DNA from: Myxococcales bacterium
Lineage (GTDB): Bacteria > Myxococcota_A > UBA9042 > JABWCM01
DNA: 64,000 bases
Direction: 5' to 3'
Assembly (NCBI GenBank): GCA_013360285.1
Contig: JABWCM010000005.1
Coordinates: forward strand, 2,149-66,148
Shown: piece by piece, positions 1 to 23,700 of the stretch
How the letters are laid out: every line of letters starts with the position of its first letter
How positions within the stretch are numbered: the stretch's first letter is position 1
Position numbers and translations under genes: made by a program
Notes under the pieces: generated by a model
The model's input: the letters and a program-made list of their open reading frames with translations, nothing else
Databases searched by the model: none
Told to the model about the DNA's origin: nothing

Positions 1-713
1 GCCTTTGCTGCGGCTGCGATCAGCGCCAGCACGGAATTACGCAGGCTTCGACCTTCCCGATCTAGCCACTCACGCACGCGTTCGGTGACGTCGCCGGTTT
101 GCCGACGTGCATCCCGAATTCGTGTCAGCAACTCCGCGGAAAGCAACGGAACCATGGTCTGACGAAGGTTAAGGCCTGCTCGAATCCGTGCGGGCCGGCT
201 CAGTAAGTTCCGCAGAACTTTCCGAACGCCTTTGCCAGGCTGAATCCGGGAACACAAGGATTCAATGAGCGGAATATCCACCCGACGTGTGCGGGCTTTT
301 GGGCTACACACAAGGTCATCCACAGCGGAAACACGCGCTCGTCCACGAATTTCGGCGATTACCAGCGCTTTGCGTAATTCTGCCGGATTGGTTGCCCCAA
401 GTGAGATTGCATATCGAAGTGCGTCCAAATACGGCTCATTCGATCGTGCGCGGCGAATTTCCGTTCGCAGGGTATCCAGTACCGGCTCCATTCGGTGTGG
501 TAAAAGAATGGTTTCCGGCACGTGAGGAACCGAGCCGGACCGAACTCCGCAAATTGTTGCAAGGGCTTCGTCCTCGGTTGCCCACACCCAGTTGTCGAAT
601 GCACGCGAGTCAATCAGTCGAAGACCCCGCAAGAGGGTCAAGTCCGGAGTGGTGCGCGTCGGAGGCCGCGCCTCCTCGGAATCCTGGCGGTCATAGTAAC
701 GTAACGATGTCAT
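1..713 (-). CDS. Hypothetical protein, 3' end outside the window. It is missing from the supplied ORF track.
   Basis: Manual translation of the minus strand from the ATG at 713..711 runs 237 codons to position 1 without a stop (MTSLRYYDRQDSEEARPP...LALIAAAAKA). The frame is Arg/Leu-rich, like other genes here. No family was recognised. Confidence 0.45.
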   Translation of the reverse strand, partial: MTSLRYYDRQDSEEARPPTRTTPDLTLLRGLRLIDSRAFDNWVWATEDEALATICGVRSGSVPHVPETILLPHRMEPVLDTLRTEIRRARSNEPYLDALRYAISLGATNPAELRKALVIAEIRGRARVSAVDDLVCSPKARTRRVDIPLIESLCSRIQPGKGVRKVLRNLLSRPARIRAGLNLRQTMVPLLSAELLTRIRDARRQTGDVTERVREWLDREGRSLRNSVLALIAAAAK

Positions 714-1114: not shown

Positions 1115-1273
1115 AAGAGGGTGTTTGGGAAAAAAATAAGCTGCGTGAGCCATTGGCCTACTGCGTCGGTCCTGCCTCGGTCGGCCCATCCTCAGCGTAC
1201 CTTCGGGTACGCCTCCGGTGGGCCTCGGTCGGCAGGCCCGCCTCGTATTTTTTTCACAAACACCCTCTAAACA
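1115..1273. mobile_element. MITE-like element: 25-bp terminal inverted repeats around a structured ~105-bp core
   Basis: Left end AAGAGGGTGTTTGGGAAAAAAATA (1115-1139) and right end TATTTTTTTCACAAACACCCTCTAAACA (1246-1273) are near-perfect reverse complements. The core carries the direct repeat CCTCGGTCGGC twice and a GTACC-UUCG-GGTAC tetraloop hairpin (1197-1210). It is non-coding and sits in the 690-bp gap upstream of the CoA-ligase gene. Confidence 0.5.
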
Positions 1274-1408
1274 TGTAAAATGTTTAGAACTGTGGTTGCT
1301 CAGACGATTTCCTCCGGAACCCCGGCTTTTTCAACAACCTGTTTTGTTTCCTAGAACCAATAGATTTCCGGTGCTTACCGGATGCCCTGTCCACCAAGGA
1401 AAGTCACC

Positions 1409-3016
1409 ATGAACTCCAATTCCACGTTTCCGGACCCCCCCGAGCAACTCAACATTGCGGAGTACTTCCTGGACAGACGTATCGATGAAGGATTGGGTGA
1501 CCATGTTGCTATTTACGGCCACAACGGGCCGTCTTTGACTTATAAGGATGTACAAAACGCTTCGAATCGGCTGGCCAATGTATTTCGCGACCGTGGTCTT
1601 GAAATGGAAAACCGAGTTTTGATCGCACTCCCGGACTGCCACGAATTTGTCATTGCGTGGTTTGCCACCTTGAAATGCGGCGCTGTGTTTACCATGGTCA
1701 ATCCACGAGCCACCGACGCTGACCTGGAATACACCCTTAATTACACCCGAGCGAAGATATTGATTACAAATTACGACATCTTTGTTCGGGTGATGCGCAA
1801 CTTCCACCAAGACAAGCAAACATCGTGCCATCTTCGACATGTGCTTGTGGTGGGAGAACAAGTCTCCGGAGAGCAAAGTTACTCCGACGCAATCCGCCAC
1901 GCCACCCCCTCGTTCACCAATGCGGTTACACATCGAGATGACGTGGCCGGTTGGCTGTTCACTTCGGGCTCCACCGGACACCCCAAAGCGGCGGTGCATT
2001 TGCACCACGACTTTGTATTCAATACCGAGAGATACGCCAAATACGTACTCGGGATCAATCCCCGCGATCGTACATTGAGTGTTCCGCGGCTTTATTTTGG
2101 TTACGCAACCGGAACAAATCTGATGTTTCCGTTTTCGGTAGGTGCTTCCACGGTCTTGTTTGATGCCCACCCAACCGCTGATCTCATGTTTTCGCTCATC
2201 GAGCAGTATCGTCCGACTATTCTGACGGCTGTACCAACCATGATTGCGGCGATGTTGGCGGTTCCTGGGGCAGAAAATTACGATTTGTCGTCGTTGCGTG
2301 CGTGTTTGTCGGCCGGCGAGGCCCTTCCCGAAGAATTGTACCGCCGGTGGATGAACACGTTTGGGGTAGAAATTTTGGACGGTATTGGCTCCGCGGAAAT
2401 GTTTCATATCTACATTACGAATTACCCGGGACAATCGATACCTGGTTCGGTTGGAAAAATCGTGCCCGGTTACAAAACGCGAATTGTGGGTCCGGATGGG
2501 CAAGACGTGGAGCCGGGCATGATTGGCACACTTTGGGTGAATGGTGACAGCGCAGCGGTATGTTACTGGCACGATCATGAGCGTTCAAAGCAGTGTTTGC
2601 GAGGTGATTGGGTTGTTACAAGTGATCAATTTCAACTGGATAACGACGGAAATTACCGTTATTGCGGCAGATTGGATGATATGCTCAAGGTTGGCGGCAT
2701 ATTTGTATCTCCGGTGGAAATTGAAAACTGTCTCCACGAACATGTAGCGGTCGCGGAATGCGCCGTTGTCGGTTACAGCGAGGCAGGGCTTACCAAGCCG
2801 ATGGCTGTTGTGGTCGTCCGTGATGGCGTTACACCGGGCAGCGAACTGGCGGAACAGCTTCAGGCATTTGTTCGTTCGAGGTTGGCACCGTACAAGTATC
2901 CGCGCAAGGTTTTGTTTGTGGCGTCTCTTCCCAAAAATGATCGAGGTAAATTGGACCGAAAAACTCTTTCTTCGATAGCGAATTCTCTTGATTTAAGTTA
3001 CCAAATTCATGGTTAA
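1409..3016 (+). CDS. Benzoate-CoA ligase family AMP-dependent synthetase (aromatic acid-CoA ligase)
   Basis: AMP-binding motif FTSGSTGHPKAAVH. The gate and linker motifs YGxTE-like (GIGSAEM) and LAPYKYPRKVLFVASLPKNDRGKLDRK match the C-terminal end of BadA/BclA-type ligases. AGGAAAG lies 6 nt upstream of the ATG at 1409. Confidence 0.85.
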   Translation: MNSNSTFPDPPEQLNIAEYFLDRRIDEGLGDHVAIYGHNGPSLTYKDVQNASNRLANVFRDRGLEMENRVLIALPDCHEFVIAWFATLKCGAVFTMVNPRATDADLEYTLNYTRAKILITNYDIFVRVMRNFHQDKQTSCHLRHVLVVGEQVSGEQSYSDAIRHATPSFTNAVTHRDDVAGWLFTSGSTGHPKAAVHLHHDFVFNTERYAKYVLGINPRDRTLSVPRLYFGYATGTNLMFPFSVGASTVLFDAHPTADLMFSLIEQYRPTILTAVPTMIAAMLAVPGAENYDLSSLRACLSAGEALPEELYRRWMNTFGVEILDGIGSAEMFHIYITNYPGQSIPGSVGKIVPGYKTRIVGPDGQDVEPGMIGTLWVNGDSAAVCYWHDHERSKQCLRGDWVVTSDQFQLDNDGNYRYCGRLDDMLKVGGIFVSPVEIENCLHEHVAVAECAVVGYSEAGLTKPMAVVVVRDGVTPGSELAEQLQAFVRSRLAPYKYPRKVLFVASLPKNDRGKLDRKTLSSIANSLDLSYQIHG

Positions 3017-4963: not shown

Positions 4964-4994
4964 GTTGTGAGAAAGTCTACGGACGCGGGGTGGC

Positions 4995-5140
4995 TGGTGT
5001 TTGTAGATGAATTCCAGGCCCGGGCGGCCTTTGGCTGTCTCGCCCGTAAAAATCCCTGCGCCATATTCCCGATATGATTCAGGATTTTTTCTGACGAGAT
5101 CGATCCTCGAATTCCAACGCTGGTCAGAAGTGTGTGTTAA
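4995..5140. repeat. Partial copy of a ~160-bp MITE-like element (second copy at 19116-19278)
   Basis: A ~110-bp core is shared with the 19.1-kb copy: GGTGTTTGTAGATGAA...GGCGGCCTTTGGCTGTCTCGCCCGTAAAAATCCCTGCGCCATATTCCCGATAT.ATTCAGGATTTTTTCTGACGA. It includes the AAAAATCCCTG...CAGGATTTTT stem. It sits immediately 3' of the tRNA-fMet terminator. Confidence 0.6.
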
Positions 5141-5964: not shown

Positions 5965-8520
5965 ATGCCGATGTTTTGGAGACCACGGGCAAAGGAGGGT
6001 GTTTTGAAAAAAAAAAGGTGGATTGTCTGGACTGCCGTCGTCGCTCTCGGATTTACGCTGGGTGCCGGTACAGCCCTGTCGATTCATTTCTACGTAGATC
6101 ACACACTCAAGAACAAACTGGCCGAAATTGCTCACCGGTTTGGGGCAACGGTGATTGTTGACGGTGTTTCCTTTGGCTACAACGGTCAAATATCAATTCG
6201 GAAACTCGCCTTGTCGTGGCCGAGGGAAGTTGGACTAGAACTCACTCTGAATCGGTTGACTACGCGTATTCATATTGGTGCGCTATTGATGAATATGCAG
6301 CGATTTGATCCGGTAGTAATTGAATCATGTGATGTTTTTGCCCATAACATTCCAAATAACATCGACAGCTTTGTAAAAGATATGAAATTGCGAGTGGCGG
6401 CGCTTCAGGAATTTCGGAGTGTGGACAACCCGTCATCCCCCGACGGTGGGAGGCTGTCCACCACAAGTTTGGAAATCAACATTCGGTCCGGTTCTGTGAC
6501 AGCTTTACGGTCCGACCAGCCCGCAGATAAGATAGTTGATTCGTTGGTTTTTTCTATCGCACGTCATGAAAGTGGCGTCTGGGTCGGTGACGGAACAGTT
6601 GGGGTGAGTCGACGCCCGTCAACGTTGCGCCTAGTCGGTCAGACAGGGCCGGAAGCATTGGTAGAAATACGCAGCAGCAGCCCGTGGGCTCTGTTCGACG
6701 GTGCCGTGTCCTTTACGGGAGTTCGAGCCGAGAAATCCGGACGTATTTCGGTGTTTGATGTGTTGTTTGATTATGCCGTTGCAGGGATGGGACGGGGAAA
6801 CGGTGCGGCGGCGGAAGTAACAGCACAGATTGAGTTTTCACCAGATAAGAAGCCATCGGTAAGTCACATAACAGTTTCCGGTGGTCATTTTGCATTCGTA
6901 TCCGAATATTCGGTGGACGAAATACTAAACCAGTTGCGGCGTCAGTCCGGCCACTCCGGACAGCATTCGGCATTGCCGGTTCTTGCACCCTTGTCCCCCG
7001 ATTCCATTGGGCAGTTGCCTGTCGACTTGGCGCCGGAGTTTGTGGCTTCAGTGAAAGACAGTCACGTTCTACTCACCGATCCAAATCGTTTGTCTGCAAC
7101 CATAAACGTCCACGAGGGGTACGGCACCCGGAACCCAAAAGGGTTGTCAGTGGATGGACACACAGCGGTACATGTCGACGGTTTTCCAGAATTTTCTGGT
7201 CATTTTGGCTTAAAATGGGATGCCAAAGAGCAATTACTCACACAGATTTCGGCGGATATTGACAATGTGTCGATTCCGTCGCTTTTTCGACGGCTGAAAT
7301 TGCCGGCGTGGTCTGCAATTGCTGGAAGTGGTCGTCTGCAGGTGAAGTGGAGTCGTCCACCGTCGTCACGGGCTTTTTTTCCGTCTCATCGGGACGGAGG
7401 ATGGCAAGTTGTTGTTTCTGCTCGAGATTGGGTTATTCTGCACCCAAAAATCTCGCCCCTACCGGTGGTGGTGGATGGATGGCAGGCGACCCTTACCGGA
7501 TCCGTACCGCCTGCCGGAACAAAAGGGATGGTTCAATTTGTTTTTCGTCACGTCGGCGGCGCCCAAGCGTTGGTCGATGTCGTAGTGGACCGTCAATATA
7601 GCCCGCCACGATTGGACGTTTTGTTGCATGTTCCGGAGCAAGACTGTTCAACGCTTGTCGCTGCGATTCCCGCTGGGTTGTTACCTACAATTGGTTCAAA
7701 GTTAGTTGTTACCGGTCGATTTGAGGGTGACCTGAACCTGTTCGAATTTGATTTCGCATATTTTCCAAGGTTGCGGCTCGAATCGAAGGGAACACTTACA
7801 TCATGCAAAATTGAATCGTTGGGTGCGCTTCACGATGAACGTGTTGAGCTGCTGTCCGGGAAGTTCAAGATAGAGGTGGACGAAGGCGATGGTCCCATCG
7901 GAGTTTTTGTCGGTCCGCGTACTCCCGGCTACATGGCGTTTGCGGATATTCCTGAATTGGTACGATCCGGAGCCATCCTAAGTGAAGATGGTGAGTTTTT
8001 TCTGCACGAAGGGATCAGTCTCAAGCTTATTGAAGGCGCGCTGCGACTTGATCTTGCGAAGGGCCGATACGTATACGGAGGCAGCACGATCACGCAACAG
8101 TTGGTAAAAAATTTGTTTGTGGGGCGAAGCAAGAGTTTGGCTAGAAAACTCGAAGAATTGTTTATCGTTCGTAAGTTAGAGCAGACCTTACGTAAAGAAC
8201 GGATACTTGAGTTGTATCTCAACTGCATTGAGTATGGCGTTCACTTGTATGGCATTCGAAATGCGAGTTACCACTACTTCGGAAAAGAACCTCGGGACCT
8301 AACGGGCGTAGAAGTTGCGTTTCTGATGCACCTGAAGACAACACCGAAGGAGGCATGGTACCTTGCAAAGCAGGGAGCGTTGCCGGATAGGTGGAGAAAT
8401 GCGGTGCGTACAAGGATGAGAAAGATGGTGGAACGTGGCAGAATTACGCAAGAGGAATTTGATGCCAGTGCGCCTTATGATCCGATCGCGATGAAGAATG
8501 GCGCTTTGACTTCACAATAA
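5965..8520 (+). CDS. Large membrane-anchored protein with C-terminal GT51 peptidoglycan glycosyltransferase (transglycosylase) domain
   Basis: N-terminal TM helix (WIVWTAVVALGFTLGAG). The last ~200 aa carry the GT51 motifs EDGEFFLHEGISLKLI, GGSTITQQLVKN and RKLEELFIVRKLEQTLRKERILELYLN. The preceding ~650 aa is unassigned. Confidence 0.8.
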   Translation: MPMFWRPRAKEGVLKKKRWIVWTAVVALGFTLGAGTALSIHFYVDHTLKNKLAEIAHRFGATVIVDGVSFGYNGQISIRKLALSWPREVGLELTLNRLTTRIHIGALLMNMQRFDPVVIESCDVFAHNIPNNIDSFVKDMKLRVAALQEFRSVDNPSSPDGGRLSTTSLEINIRSGSVTALRSDQPADKIVDSLVFSIARHESGVWVGDGTVGVSRRPSTLRLVGQTGPEALVEIRSSSPWALFDGAVSFTGVRAEKSGRISVFDVLFDYAVAGMGRGNGAAAEVTAQIEFSPDKKPSVSHITVSGGHFAFVSEYSVDEILNQLRRQSGHSGQHSALPVLAPLSPDSIGQLPVDLAPEFVASVKDSHVLLTDPNRLSATINVHEGYGTRNPKGLSVDGHTAVHVDGFPEFSGHFGLKWDAKEQLLTQISADIDNVSIPSLFRRLKLPAWSAIAGSGRLQVKWSRPPSSRAFFPSHRDGGWQVVVSARDWVILHPKISPLPVVVDGWQATLTGSVPPAGTKGMVQFVFRHVGGAQALVDVVVDRQYSPPRLDVLLHVPEQDCSTLVAAIPAGLLPTIGSKLVVTGRFEGDLNLFEFDFAYFPRLRLESKGTLTSCKIESLGALHDERVELLSGKFKIEVDEGDGPIGVFVGPRTPGYMAFADIPELVRSGAILSEDGEFFLHEGISLKLIEGALRLDLAKGRYVYGGSTITQQLVKNLFVGRSKSLARKLEELFIVRKLEQTLRKERILELYLNCIEYGVHLYGIRNASYHYFGKEPRDLTGVEVAFLMHLKTTPKEAWYLAKQGALPDRWRNAVRTRMRKMVERGRITQEEFDASAPYDPIAMKNGALTSQ

Positions 8521-10607: not shown

Positions 10608-10718
10608 TGACCTTCGGATATGGCTTGACACAACTGTGCCGTGATCCGCTGCGAATCGGGTTGCTAATTGAATCGAATTTGTCGTTAAATAAGTTGCGTG
10701 GCGCAGGGTGTTTGGGTA

Positions 10719-18965: not shown

Positions 18966-19115
18966 TCTTTCGTCGCCTCTCGGTTTTCGGCTCGACGCCG
19001 AGCCACGGCATGGGATGCTACTCTATGGCAAGAAACAGTGTCAACGCACCGCATAAGATTGCAGGTGGTTTGGGTGCGTCGGGTGATGGGAGTTCTCGCA
19101 AATGGGCACCTACCT

Positions 19116-19278
19116 AGGTGTGTGGTGTTTTTAGATGAAATTTGTGTCCTGGCCGCCTTTGGCCGCCTCGCCCGCAAAAATCCCTGCGGCATATTCCGGA
19201 TATTCCTCAGGATTTTTTCCGACGATTCGGCTCAAATTCGGCTGGCCAAAAATTCCCCTAAAAAACACCACACACCCA
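19116..19278. mobile_element. MITE-like element with perfect 16-bp terminal inverted repeats
   Basis: GGTGTGTGGTGTTTTT at 19117-19132 and its exact reverse complement AAAAACACCACACACC at 19263-19278. The internal ~110 bp match the copy at 4995-5140. It lies between the PEGA gene start and the metalloprotease gene stop. Confidence 0.7.
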
Positions 19279-19280
19279 GC

Positions 19281-22190
19281 TCAGAATCCAGTGCCGCTGA
19301 CAAAATAACATTGCAATATCCCAACTTCGCCTAGGCCGTGGGCGATTCCGAGCCGAAAATGGGTTGCGTGGCCGGTCAACAACGTTGCCGCGGTGCGCAG
19401 TTCTGCTCCAAGACTCATGTGCCAGGGCGCGCTACGGAGCGATTCACCGGTTGCCGTTCCGACGTCAAAAAAGAGCGCAGCGTGTAGCCTTTCTATGAAA
19501 AACGGCAAACTAGTGAATCCATCGTGGATGTACCAGACAGGAAAACGATACTCGATATTAAATAAGTGGATCTGGTCACCGCGAAACGCGTCTGGAACAA
19601 ATCCTCGAAGCAAACCGGCACCGAGCCCACGTTCTTCCAAGATATCTTCGACGAGGTCCCTCTCCGGGATGCCGCCAAGGCGAAACCCTTCTTTTCTTGC
19701 CGGGTCGCCGCCGGAAATTCCCCCGTCGTATCGCAGGGCAAAGACATGGGCTCGAGCGTACGGCATGGCAAAATATTCGTTCCACTGCCATCTGGCGGTA
19801 TACGTTAAACTGTCGGAATCCAATAACGATGTTCTGACAACCAACGATGTGCCGAGTCGGCGACCGGTTTCCGGGCTGATTGAATAATAAAAACTCTCCC
19901 TGTTGTCGTATCTCCAACTAAACGAGAAACTGATATTCGTTGCCCCTGTGGGGACATAGGGGATTCCGGTCGCCGGATCAGGGCGCAAAGACGGGGTCTC
20001 TACCAGGAACCCTTTGGAGATATCGACGCGGAAATTGGTTGTAAATGAGCCGGAATTGTTGGGAAACGGCAACGACACGTCAACAGAGCCGAGTGCGACG
20101 TCTTCATCCACCACAACAGTGGTGAAGGCATCAAATGCAATTCTTGGTCGACGAAACCACGCCGCACTGAGTCCTACCGACGGAATATAGTGCTGATTTC
20201 TGTAAGATAAGGCTATCGACGGAAACGGATTTTCGACGTTCCAGTGAGCACCGATAGACCACGTATGCAATTGTACGGCATCGTTTCCGGTCAATTGGAG
20301 TTGTAGAGTCGCATTATCGGGCGATACAAACCTAAATTCCGGCAACCATGTTGCAGGGTAGAGCGTAAACATAGGATTGTATTCGGATTCAGGATAATGA
20401 ATTTGGTTTGGCGAATACCGCCCCCGGGGGGAGAAGTCTTCAAGTGCGACGGTTTTTTGCGCGGTGTCGGCATCCGGAGACGGCGAAAAATCAAGAGCAC
20501 TTTCTGCAAGGTCCCAGCCTTGTGTGCTGTACCGGCTAAATAGGACCGTGGTTCCGTCGGTGGTTGGGTCGACTGCGCCGGTCAGCGTTCGTGTAATTTG
20601 GTGTTTTTCTTTTGTTTTGATGTCCAGCGCAAACAATTCGGGACCGTCTTCTCCAGAAGCTGCGTAGACAACAATCCGCCCATCCGGCGAAAAACTGGGG
20701 GTCATGTCGGCCGCAGCATCCGCCGTCAAACGTGTTACCTGACCGGTGCCCAGTTCTTTTGTATACAAATCCCACACGTTGTTTTTGTGCATCGCAAACA
20801 CAATCCGGCGCCCATCGGGGCTGAATCGCGGATGGATGACCTGTTGCAGCCCAACCGGTGCGACGAGGTCGGTTTCCTGACCCGTGGACAAATCCCGCAG
20901 CACCAGGCGGGAACGTCCATATTGGGATGTGGCAAATACGATGGACCGGCCGTCCGGAGACGGCGTTGGATCGAGAACCCGTCGCCCCCAAGTCAGCCGG
21001 GTGGTTTGTTGTGTTGCCAGGTCATAACGGAAGAGGTCGTCGAAGTGATATACCGTGTCAAATCGTTCACTTCTGGTGAAATAAACCGACATCCCGTCGG
21101 CACTGAAAACGGGCCTGCCACATCCTCCGCGACAGGTGATTACGTCTTGTTCGACGCCGGTTTTTCGATCTCTTATACGCAACGTGCTGATCTGGTCGCC
21201 GGTCGAAGACCGATACACCAGCAGGCGACCGTCTGGGGACAACGACGGGTTCCGTTGAAACTCGCCTTCGGTGGTCAGCGGTGTACCATTTTTTAATCCG
21301 AGTTGTTCTTGGTTAGTCTTCCATCGACCGTACCGAATCTTCAGATCACGGTGCCAGGTCATTTGCATATCGTCCCACGTCGATCCAAACACCTCTTTTG
21401 CGATCGCGTTGTATCCTATGGGCACCAAACGGCGGCTGTATTTTTGCAAAAATAACCGCAATCGGTCTTCTCCGTAGTTTTCCGCCAGAAATGAGATGAA
21501 TGAACCGCCAAAAGCATACCAACCGGTTCTGCGGGGTTGTTCGTGGGGGCTGCCTCCCAACTGGGCAAAACTGGGCAACGTGTCGCCCAAAGCTGCGGTG
21601 CGTAAATACATTTCGAAAAAAGACCGGTGGTTTCGCCCACCGCCGGTTTTTTGGGTCTCAACCCAGGTCGCGAGGCCCTCGATGAACCAGTTGGGAAGAT
21701 TCTGATGGGGGCGCACCGAGAGCCCGATACTGGTCAATAGGCCAGGAATCCCGTCCACCATGTTTAAATGCAGGATGTGGGTGTATTCGTGATACAGCAG
21801 CATTCGTAGATAGTCGTCGGCATCTCCTAGATCACTGTCGGGACCCGGATGAAACGCCAACAACGTGATCAAATTATATCGGTCAACGGATGCATATCCG
21901 TTGGCGTTGTCGCCCGGGTCCACCAATACAATGTTGGTATGAATCGAATCGGCCGTGCCGAAAAACGGCGCAAGGGCATCGTGGGCTTCCTCGGCTATAT
22001 TGGCCGCTTTTCTTCCAATTTCTTCGGCTGAGGCGGGATAGTGTACCGAAAAGTGTTTTGTACTGATCGTACGCCACGAGATCTTTGGATCTGCCGCCAA
22101 CACCTGGGTGATAAACGCTGACTGCCCCAACAAAATCAGCGGGAAATACATCAAGGCAAAAAGGAATTTCGTTTTGGCGGTAACGGTCAC
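19281..22190 (-). CDS. Secreted zinc metalloprotease (HEXXH) fused to TolB-like beta-propeller and C-terminal beta-barrel
   Basis: HEYTHILH zinc motif. Multiple SPDG/FSPDGR WD40-like repeats (SLSPDGRLLVYRS, FSADGMSVYF, FSPDGRRIVFA, FSPDGRIVVYA). The C-terminus has alternating aromatic and beta-strand character and ends ...YFVSGTGF. GTG start with a signal-like N-terminus. Confidence 0.6.
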   Translation of the reverse strand: MTVTAKTKFLFALMYFPLILLGQSAFITQVLAADPKISWRTISTKHFSVHYPASAEEIGRKAANIAEEAHDALAPFFGTADSIHTNIVLVDPGDNANGYASVDRYNLITLLAFHPGPDSDLGDADDYLRMLLYHEYTHILHLNMVDGIPGLLTSIGLSVRPHQNLPNWFIEGLATWVETQKTGGGRNHRSFFEMYLRTAALGDTLPSFAQLGGSPHEQPRRTGWYAFGGSFISFLAENYGEDRLRLFLQKYSRRLVPIGYNAIAKEVFGSTWDDMQMTWHRDLKIRYGRWKTNQEQLGLKNGTPLTTEGEFQRNPSLSPDGRLLVYRSSTGDQISTLRIRDRKTGVEQDVITCRGGCGRPVFSADGMSVYFTRSERFDTVYHFDDLFRYDLATQQTTRLTWGRRVLDPTPSPDGRSIVFATSQYGRSRLVLRDLSTGQETDLVAPVGLQQVIHPRFSPDGRRIVFAMHKNNVWDLYTKELGTGQVTRLTADAAADMTPSFSPDGRIVVYAASGEDGPELFALDIKTKEKHQITRTLTGAVDPTTDGTTVLFSRYSTQGWDLAESALDFSPSPDADTAQKTVALEDFSPRGRYSPNQIHYPESEYNPMFTLYPATWLPEFRFVSPDNATLQLQLTGNDAVQLHTWSIGAHWNVENPFPSIALSYRNQHYIPSVGLSAAWFRRPRIAFDAFTTVVVDEDVALGSVDVSLPFPNNSGSFTTNFRVDISKGFLVETPSLRPDPATGIPYVPTGATNISFSFSWRYDNRESFYYSISPETGRRLGTSLVVRTSLLDSDSLTYTARWQWNEYFAMPYARAHVFALRYDGGISGGDPARKEGFRLGGIPERDLVEDILEERGLGAGLLRGFVPDAFRGDQIHLFNIEYRFPVWYIHDGFTSLPFFIERLHAALFFDVGTATGESLRSAPWHMSLGAELRTAATLLTGHATHFRLGIAHGLGEVGILQCYFVSGTGF

Positions 22191-23395: not shown

Positions 23396-23700
23396 TCGTT
23401 TTTCCGAAATGGGAAAGGCGTTGTCGACTATCAAAAGTCGTCTTTCCCAAATGGGAAAGGTGTTTTTTAAACCCGGATCGTGTTGTGTCACCCGGGAAAG
23501 CCTTTTCCAAAAGCCGGAATCGTCTTTTGCCACAAAAAAAGCCGTTGCCGAAAGTCCGGATCGCCTTTCCCAAATGGGAAAGATGTTCGTGAATGCCGGA
23601 GATTGTCTTTCCCACTTGGGAAAGGCGTTTCCGAACGCCAAAAGTCATCTTTCCCAAACAGGAAAGGTGTTCGCGAATGTCAAAGTCGTCTTTCACAGCC
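23396..23700. repeat. Tandem array of ~8 degenerate ~42-bp units, each centred on the palindrome CTTTCCCAAATGGGAAAG
   Basis: Units begin at about 23396, 23441, 23489, 23523, 23565, 23607, 23649 and 23691. The consensus is CTTTCCCAAATGGGAAAGGYGTTYNNGAATGYCNNAGNNTCGT. The array is non-coding and lies between convergent genes. The small FPKWER-repeat ORFs here are translation artefacts of the DNA repeat. Confidence 0.7.

Follow-up and report, generated by a model that had tools for sequence, protein, structure and literature searches.

The window analysed here is a 64,000-nt (64-kb) stretch of a Myxococcales bacterium contig, near the start of which two divergent genes are separated by a 695-nt region (Table 1). 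One of them encodes an AMP-binding enzyme of the benzoate-CoA-ligase family and is followed by a creatininase-family gene. The product of the other, upstream gene has no detectable homologue among 5.8 billion database proteins. Since this gene is 92% identical to its counterpart on a related contig, L006, and shows low dN/dS against it, sequence comparison indicates that it is a real, lineage-restricted gene. Database relatives of the CoA ligase were found at 100%, 99%, and 87% identity, with the next at 61% and below, and the organism is thus thinly sampled.

Within the intergenic region, and 141 nt upstream of the CoA-ligase ATG (1409), positions 1116 to 1268 make up a long palindrome that is nearly perfect. 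The two inverted arms, at 1116-1145 and 1239-1268, span 30 nt with 87% complementarity, and their outer 23 nt contain one mismatch. The limits of the element were refined to 1117-1267, or 151 nt with GAG...CTC termini, and its terminal inverted repeats measure 22 to 30 nt. In the element, a stem with A/T tracts encloses an imperfect palindrome rich in G+C, with A7 and T7 bracketing the hairpin, and both arms carry an additional GGGT/ACCC block. Inside the core, the 12-mer GCCTCGGTCGGC occurs as a direct repeat at 1174-1185 and 1222-1233, and the apex of the fold is GCGTACC (1195-1201)-TTCG-GGTACGC (1206-1212). The whole region is predicted to fold into a single long hairpin on the plus strand (-80.5 kcal/mol, z -7.5) and on the minus strand (-83.4 kcal/mol, z -6.9), and 0 of 200 shuffles folded as well in either case. 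Open frames in the element are only short read-throughs of the palindrome, with no credible coding capacity and no transposase gene. The first-pass annotation of this DNA had described a MITE-like element with inverted-repeat termini, internal direct repeats, and a UUCG-capped hairpin upstream of the CoA-ligase operon, and each of these structural features was recovered.

Table 1. Features of the element, its flanks, and the two neighbouring genes in the window
Feature	Position	Strand	Basis or remark
Divergent upstream gene	1..713	-	Runs off window start; 92% identical to L006 gene
Left putative target-site duplication, TAA	1114..1116	.	Sequence; C at 1113; fits C/TNA/G rule
Probable MITE body, 151 nt, GAG...CTC	1117..1267	.	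Inverted repeat, fold, family match in termini, spacing, and architecture
Left terminal inverted repeat, GAGGGTGTTTGGGAAAAAAATA	1117..1138	+	GAG-N-TTTG-N-AAAA form, as in IS5-family ends (PMC4596501)
GC-rich imperfect-palindrome core with GCCTCGGTCGGC repeats and tip hairpin	1139..1245	.	Repeat search, fold
Right terminal inverted repeat, TATTTTTTTCACAAACACCCTC (as plus strand)	1246..1267	-	Unchanged in strains L001 and L005
Sigma-70-like match, TTCACA (right arm)-17 nt-TAAAAT (flank)	1253..1281	+	Consensus match only
Palindrome, TCTAAACAT-N5-ATGTTTAGA, 9-bp arms	1266..1288	.	-9.3 kcal/mol, z -5.8; weak in L006
Right putative target-site duplication, TAA	1268..1270	.	Sequence
Benzoate-CoA-ligase-family AMP-binding enzyme gene	1409..3016	+	Downstream context

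The element is flanked by the same three nucleotides on both sides and can be read as TAA/GAGGGTGTTTGGG...CACAAACACCCTC/TAA with a C before the left TAA, which gives the context C/TAA/.../TAA/A. The search for target-site duplications that the first-pass annotation had proposed thus returned a candidate, TAA. Taken alone this match is weak, because about 1 in 16 sites would match after T-A pairing is discounted. When the element was compared with the window by blastn, no second copy was found in the 64 kb. Short matches at 5995 and 10705 were both rejected as ribosome-binding-site/start regions of genes; the one at 10705 is conserved in this role in the relative L074.

JGI metagenome contigs were scanned for inverted pairs of the inner arm motif (GTTTGKGAAAAAA-N105-135-TTTTTTCMCRAAC), and the arrangement was found on 64 contigs. 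These represent 55 distinct flank groups, and their flanking DNA has a median G+C content of 64%. One 143-nt family, the main family, is carried by 55 of the 64 contigs, in two or three copies on some of them; its copies are a median of 97.9% identical to the consensus and fold into a long hairpin at -73 to -78 kcal/mol. Its ends run past the search pattern to GAG...CTC. In longer variants of this family, GC-rich hairpin modules that have loops of TTCG or GAAG are nested. The same arms also occur with wholly different cores at four loci (L016, L031, L046, and L056), each with its own 3-bp duplication and a strong hairpin fold. Three of these (L031, L046, and L056) have GAG...CTC ends, and L016 begins with GCG. 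Because these four loci share arms and differ in cores, the arm type goes with many cores.

The flanks of the metagenome copies define the target. The same 3 nt stand on both sides of the element on 52 of the 64 contigs and at 39 of the 47 unique main-family loci with complete flanks, and at 38 of these 47 the duplicated triplet is TNA; nearly all of the flanking triplets are TCA, TGA, TAA, or TTA. T-N-A is present at 44 to 46 of the 47 loci; a C precedes the duplication at 43 and a G follows it at 37. The flanking TNA is a target duplication and not part of the inverted repeat, since its middle base is repeated (TGA...TGA, TCA...TCA) rather than complemented. The target of the main family is C/TNA/G, with TNA duplicated. 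A one-sided empty site was found in addition: L018 and L036 share 91.6% identity over 1.8 kb, with homology that stops exactly at the TCA beside the element end. Among L007 to L070, an open frame of 80 codons or more has the duplicated TNA as its stop codon at 22 of 57 loci of the 143-nt family, compared with a stop-codon rate of 19% at control CTNAG sites on the same contigs. Many copies thus lie exactly at gene ends, where the duplication restores the stop.

Several features that the search pattern did not impose are common to the window element and the main family: both end in GAG...CTC, both have a duplicated TNA at their flanks, and both form a long hairpin in which an A/T-tract stem surrounds an imperfect palindrome rich in G+C. 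The arm motifs are 113 nt apart in both. Alignable sequence between the two is confined to the arms and does not extend over the whole element; the similarity of the cores is not significant, as 49 of 500 shuffles scored as well. Since the window element has the GGGT/ACCC block in its arms and a core unlike that of the main family, it is, as far as its sequence tells, a separate lineage with the same arm type. The exact GGGT/ACCC variant was not found elsewhere among the matches listed for the genome, viral, plasmid, and metagenome collections. At least three one-arm matches in genome contigs were set aside as chance, as they have no partner arm. Scans of viral contigs returned no arm-motif match, and the plasmid collection returned no match for the window element. 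For the main family, the plasmid collection held only a 49-nt match of its centre to an Aeromonas record without annotation. The centre matches five places in an Aeromonas caviae record at 88%, and it has a sub-threshold Rfam match to the Xanthomonas sRNA sX9 (24 bits, where the gathering score is 44). These matches of the centre and the nested modules of longer variants were noted at L025:5810-5858, L008:694-947, L030:26-212, and L042:7394-7754.

The locus was compared with that of close strains from other samples. Over 3.65 kb, L001 and L005 match the window at 99.9% and 99.8% identity; each of the two contigs begins within the element and has its other end in the tRNA-Met gene. Right arm and flank are the same in all three, and the bases behind them, at the start of both contigs, depart from the window: L001 has GCCACTGTCTCGCTCGCCGC followed by TATTTTTTT, L005 has CCGT followed by TATTTTTTT, and the window has ...GGCAGGCCCGCCTCG followed by TATTTTTTT. 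The subterminal TCGCTCGC of L001 matches the main family. A further contig from the same sample agrees with the window right up to its final base, which makes junk contig ends unlikely, and the core therefore probably does differ between near-identical strains. The stretches concerned, L001:1-20 and L005:1-4 against window 1225-1245, form a local hotspot of change. The change was possibly brought about by copy replacement, gene conversion, or template switching at the palindrome, and this variation hints at current activity. Short-read contigs of the near-identical strains break inside the element, inside a second repeat family of the window (B1 and B2, described below), and in the tRNA gene; breaks of this kind are what repeated DNA shows.

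More distant relatives carry the same arm type. L006, whose CoA ligase is 87% identical, covers the whole intergenic region and has an element at about the same place, where conserved blocks in the same order enclose segments of similar length (141 nt, against 136 nt). Its arms, GTTCGTGAAAAAAT and ATTTTTTCACAAAC, are 130 nt apart. The element ends in the canonical ...ATTTTTTCACAAACTC, and its left arm continues with GTGAAAAAATCGTCG, as in some main-family copies. Its core cannot be aligned with that of the window and folds weakly (z -1.2 to -2.4). Synonymous divergence between L006 and the window is 1.1 to 1.6, and fourfold-degenerate sites are 41 to 50% identical. Because unconstrained DNA should not align at such divergence, the arms are either constrained or younger than the split. 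The first-pass annotation had held that conservation of position across relatives, as part of a leader or riboswitch, would count against a MITE. An element does indeed lie at about the same position in this relative, but since its core is unalignable and its end subtype is different, it is not a conserved leader or riboswitch. In L074, whose acyl-CoA dehydrogenase is 81% identical, the contig starts inside another member (L074:1-26, ...ATTTTTTCACAAACTC/AGA), which lies 158 nt upstream of that gene. In the window, the corresponding intergenic region (10608-10718, 111 nt) is free of any such element, and the window's own strains have none there either. With members in L006 and L074, the arm type is present at more than one locus in the clade.

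No empty site was found for the window insertion, since L001, L005, and L006 all carry an element here. Three contigs whose CoA ligases are 59 to 61% identical (L071, L082, and L083) were rejected as donors of an empty site, as they have other upstream genes and short intergenic regions. The short alignments between L006 and the window fit one insertion or two. We lean toward an independent insertion or a replacement, because the end subtypes differ on both arms, the arms are too intact for the divergence, the window duplication is intact, and the reconstructed empty sites can be aligned with insertion points about 12 nt apart.

From these comparisons, window positions 1117 to 1267 are probably a MITE that was presumably mobilised in trans by a DDE transposase of the IS5/PIF-Harbinger type and that has no demonstrable core function. 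The MITE reading of the first-pass annotation is thereby upheld by a dispersed arm-sharing family with 3-bp duplications, by common termini and spacing, and by members at two loci in related lineages. Within the IS5 family, the IS1031 group of ISfinder has GAG ends and 3-bp repeats. Mobilisation of the IS5/PIF type is suggested by the C/TNA/G target with its 3-bp duplication, a combination that occurs in the PIF/Harbinger-IS5 superfamily (PMC4482050), and by ends that resemble the GAGACCTTTGCAAAA type known from the IS5 family, which has been described together with MITEs derived from such elements (PMC4596501). Under this model, the terminal repeats of about 22 bp (GAG..GTTTGKGAAAAAAA) would be the binding sites of the transposase, which would cut the element out and paste it into C/TNA/G-like targets. 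Insertion would duplicate the central TNA, here TAA. Owing to its GC-rich palindromic core, the element as RNA or as single-stranded DNA is a very stable hairpin. The window and 375 kb of fetched loci yielded neither a transposase with matching ends nor a parent insertion sequence (sought as long end pairs and as long repeats between loci); what lies between the longer end pairs is lipoprotein genes or nested repeats and no transposase. MITEs as such are well known, and the main value of the finding lies in correct annotation of this DNA as selfish repeat DNA, not as a riboswitch or a special promoter device.

Some features of the element would also suit a locus-specific regulatory structure kept by selection. 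Such a structure would act between the divergent genes as an intrinsic terminator or insulator for both directions, or it would provide two inverted protein-binding sites, one on each side of the CoA-ligase promoter. Like a bidirectional intrinsic terminator, the element has a GC-rich hairpin between an A-run and a T-run, and a terminator-like site was called at 1217-1242 with a T-run after it. A promoter-like site overlaps the right arm, and the L006 arms lie at about the same place in spite of the synonymous divergence. We nevertheless regard this explanation as unlikely. It leaves unaccounted for the 12 to 14 bp over which the arms pair beyond the A/T tracts and the TAA direct repeat that bounds the element. 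The same arms, GAG...CTC ends, and TNA duplications recur as a mobile family at about 47 unrelated loci in other bacteria, and the L074 member lies at a different locus. In addition, the L006 element has hardly any fold and carries canonical arm ends, not those of the window subtype, and the two genes are divergent, so that no terminator is needed here. A structured RNA, be it a small RNA gene or, for the CoA-ligase operon, a riboswitch, an attenuator, or a long 5' leader, would explain the very stable fold, the U-run past the hairpin, and the site upstream of a catabolic gene. This is very unlikely, as Rfam offers no family match, with none at the gathering threshold and only a chance-level match at E up to 10, and as the core is neither conserved in the 87% relative nor constant between strains that are 99.9% identical. 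The best promoter match, moreover, lies downstream of the hairpin, within the right arm, and both strands fold equally well, as a DNA palindrome should.

REP-type repeats are usually frequent in a genome, and the element does not recur in 64 kb. This speaks against a REPIN, a doublet of REP sequences that a RAYT transposase moves. The intergenic site, the length of about 150 nt, and the long imperfect hairpin are what a REPIN, or else an IS200/IS605-type palindrome-associated element, would show. To our knowledge, neither class has target duplications or terminal inverted repeats bound by a DDE enzyme, whereas the arm-sharing family has TNA duplications at 38 of 47 loci and the window element has TAA on both sides; we consider a REPIN or IS200/IS605 origin extremely unlikely. 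Two further candidates were rejected. In an inversion switch, what L001 carries behind the right arm should be what the window carries behind the left arm, in reverse complement, which it is not. In an integron attC site, the arm ends should fit RYYYAAC/GTTRRRY, which they do not, and there is no integron context. As an extension of the MITE reading, the site upstream of the CoA-ligase gene might be a landing pad at which members of the MITE superfamily are actively replaced in recurrent fashion. This is suggested by near-identical strains that differ in the core behind an identical right arm and duplication, by the other end subtype that the 87% relative carries about 12 nt off, and by the -35 hexamer that the arm would supply to the operon promoter, but on balance we find it rather doubtful. 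If true, it would mean that ongoing transposition or hairpin-driven gene conversion is rewiring a catabolic promoter in an uncultured lineage.

The hairpin of the probable MITE, with A7 and T7 on its sides, could end read-through transcription on either strand. The element also lies directly against the likely promoter of the aromatic-acid CoA-ligase gene, to which it may lend the -35 element. The sigma-70-like match scores 10 of 12 and is the sole such site in 600-1500. In a hybrid promoter of this kind, the T-tract and TTCACA of the right arm would act as the -35 part, 17 bp before the TAAAAT of the flank. In L006, the spacing between TTCACA and TAAAAT is 26 nt rather than 17, so the hybrid promoter, if there is one, is not conserved. 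The palindrome at the right border (Table 1) looks like an operator; it overlaps the element end, the TAA duplication, and the -10-like TAAAAT, and its left half is partly MITE sequence. Just upstream of the L006 element, L006:993-1036 holds a strong terminator-like hairpin with a T-run (-20 kcal/mol, z -3.2). A conserved terminator at this position was rejected, as the homologous window stretch (1055-1098) no longer folds.

The element was also compared with known systems. Like IS5-derived MITEs such as ATR/ISNme1 of Neisseria and MITEPgRS/BrickBuilt of Porphyromonas gingivalis (PMC4596501), it is short, non-coding, intergenic, and predicted to form a long stem-loop, and its ends have GAG followed by ...TTTG/TTGC...AAAA (GAGACCTTTGCAAAA in ISNme1, GAGGGTGTTTGGGAAAA in the window). 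Some IS5-derived MITEs carry promoter activity (PMC4596501). Unlike these, the window element shows no sequence identity with them past the general form of the arms and has no parent insertion sequence among the loci searched here, and the duplications of BrickBuilt are irregular whereas those described here are strictly 3-bp TNA (PMC4596501). The NuwaII group of the PHIS superfamily has the same C/TNA/G pattern as the metagenome family (PMC4482050), and the window fits it with C/TAA. The PHIS/NuwaII and Tourist groups differ in being eukaryotic, and the likeness here comes from target and ends, with no transposase found. Tourist MITEs of plants have a TAA/TTA duplication and GG..TGTTTGG ends, which may resemble the ends of the window element.

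Correia elements of Neisseria are MITEs of about 100 to 150 nt with terminal repeats of about 25 bp that lie next to genes and give rise to hairpin RNAs. They can supply promoter or terminator signals, as experiments have shown, and they duplicate TA. The window element resembles them in size, terminal-repeat length, gene-adjacent site, and hairpin folding. It differs in that Correia elements have a TA duplication and unrelated ends, and that its own effects are only inferred. No paper containing the arm sequence was found in the literature searched. The arm type spans bacteria of 54 to 66% G+C, and GAG..TTTGKGAAAAAA with a C/TNA/G target marks a widespread MITE superfamily, apparently one without an earlier description.

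The window also holds the second repeat family, with one copy at about 4988-5125 (B1) and the other at 19114-19279 (B2). The two align with each other, with cores that are 75 to 88% alike and arms of about 33 nt (GGTGTGTGGTGTTTTTAGATGAAA...). In the first-pass annotation, their ends had been taken as related to those of the element upstream of the CoA-ligase gene. This kinship found no support: B1 and B2 are separate and share only an 8-mer with it, GGTGTTTG or GGTGTTTT, of which GGTGTTTG stands at the end of the B family. The blastn comparison of the element with the window gave no other match to B1 or B2, and a broader GGTGTTTG-related motif is not enriched in the window (19 matches, with 13.6 expected from shuffles). 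No TNA duplication was seen at B2.

B1 follows directly on the tRNA-Met terminator and is degenerate at its right end. B2 directly adjoins the stop codon of a 969-aa gene (19281-22190) and seems to be absent from the 81% relative L074, where the intergenic region measures 183 nt, against 316 nt in the window. One strain contig spans exactly from inside B1 (5048) to inside B2 (19140), which indicates that short-read contigs of this organism break at repeats. Elsewhere in the window, at 23400-23700, there are about six copies of the palindrome CTTTCCCAAATGGGAAAG, in both orientations, each followed by a GGTGTT(C/T)G-like sequence.
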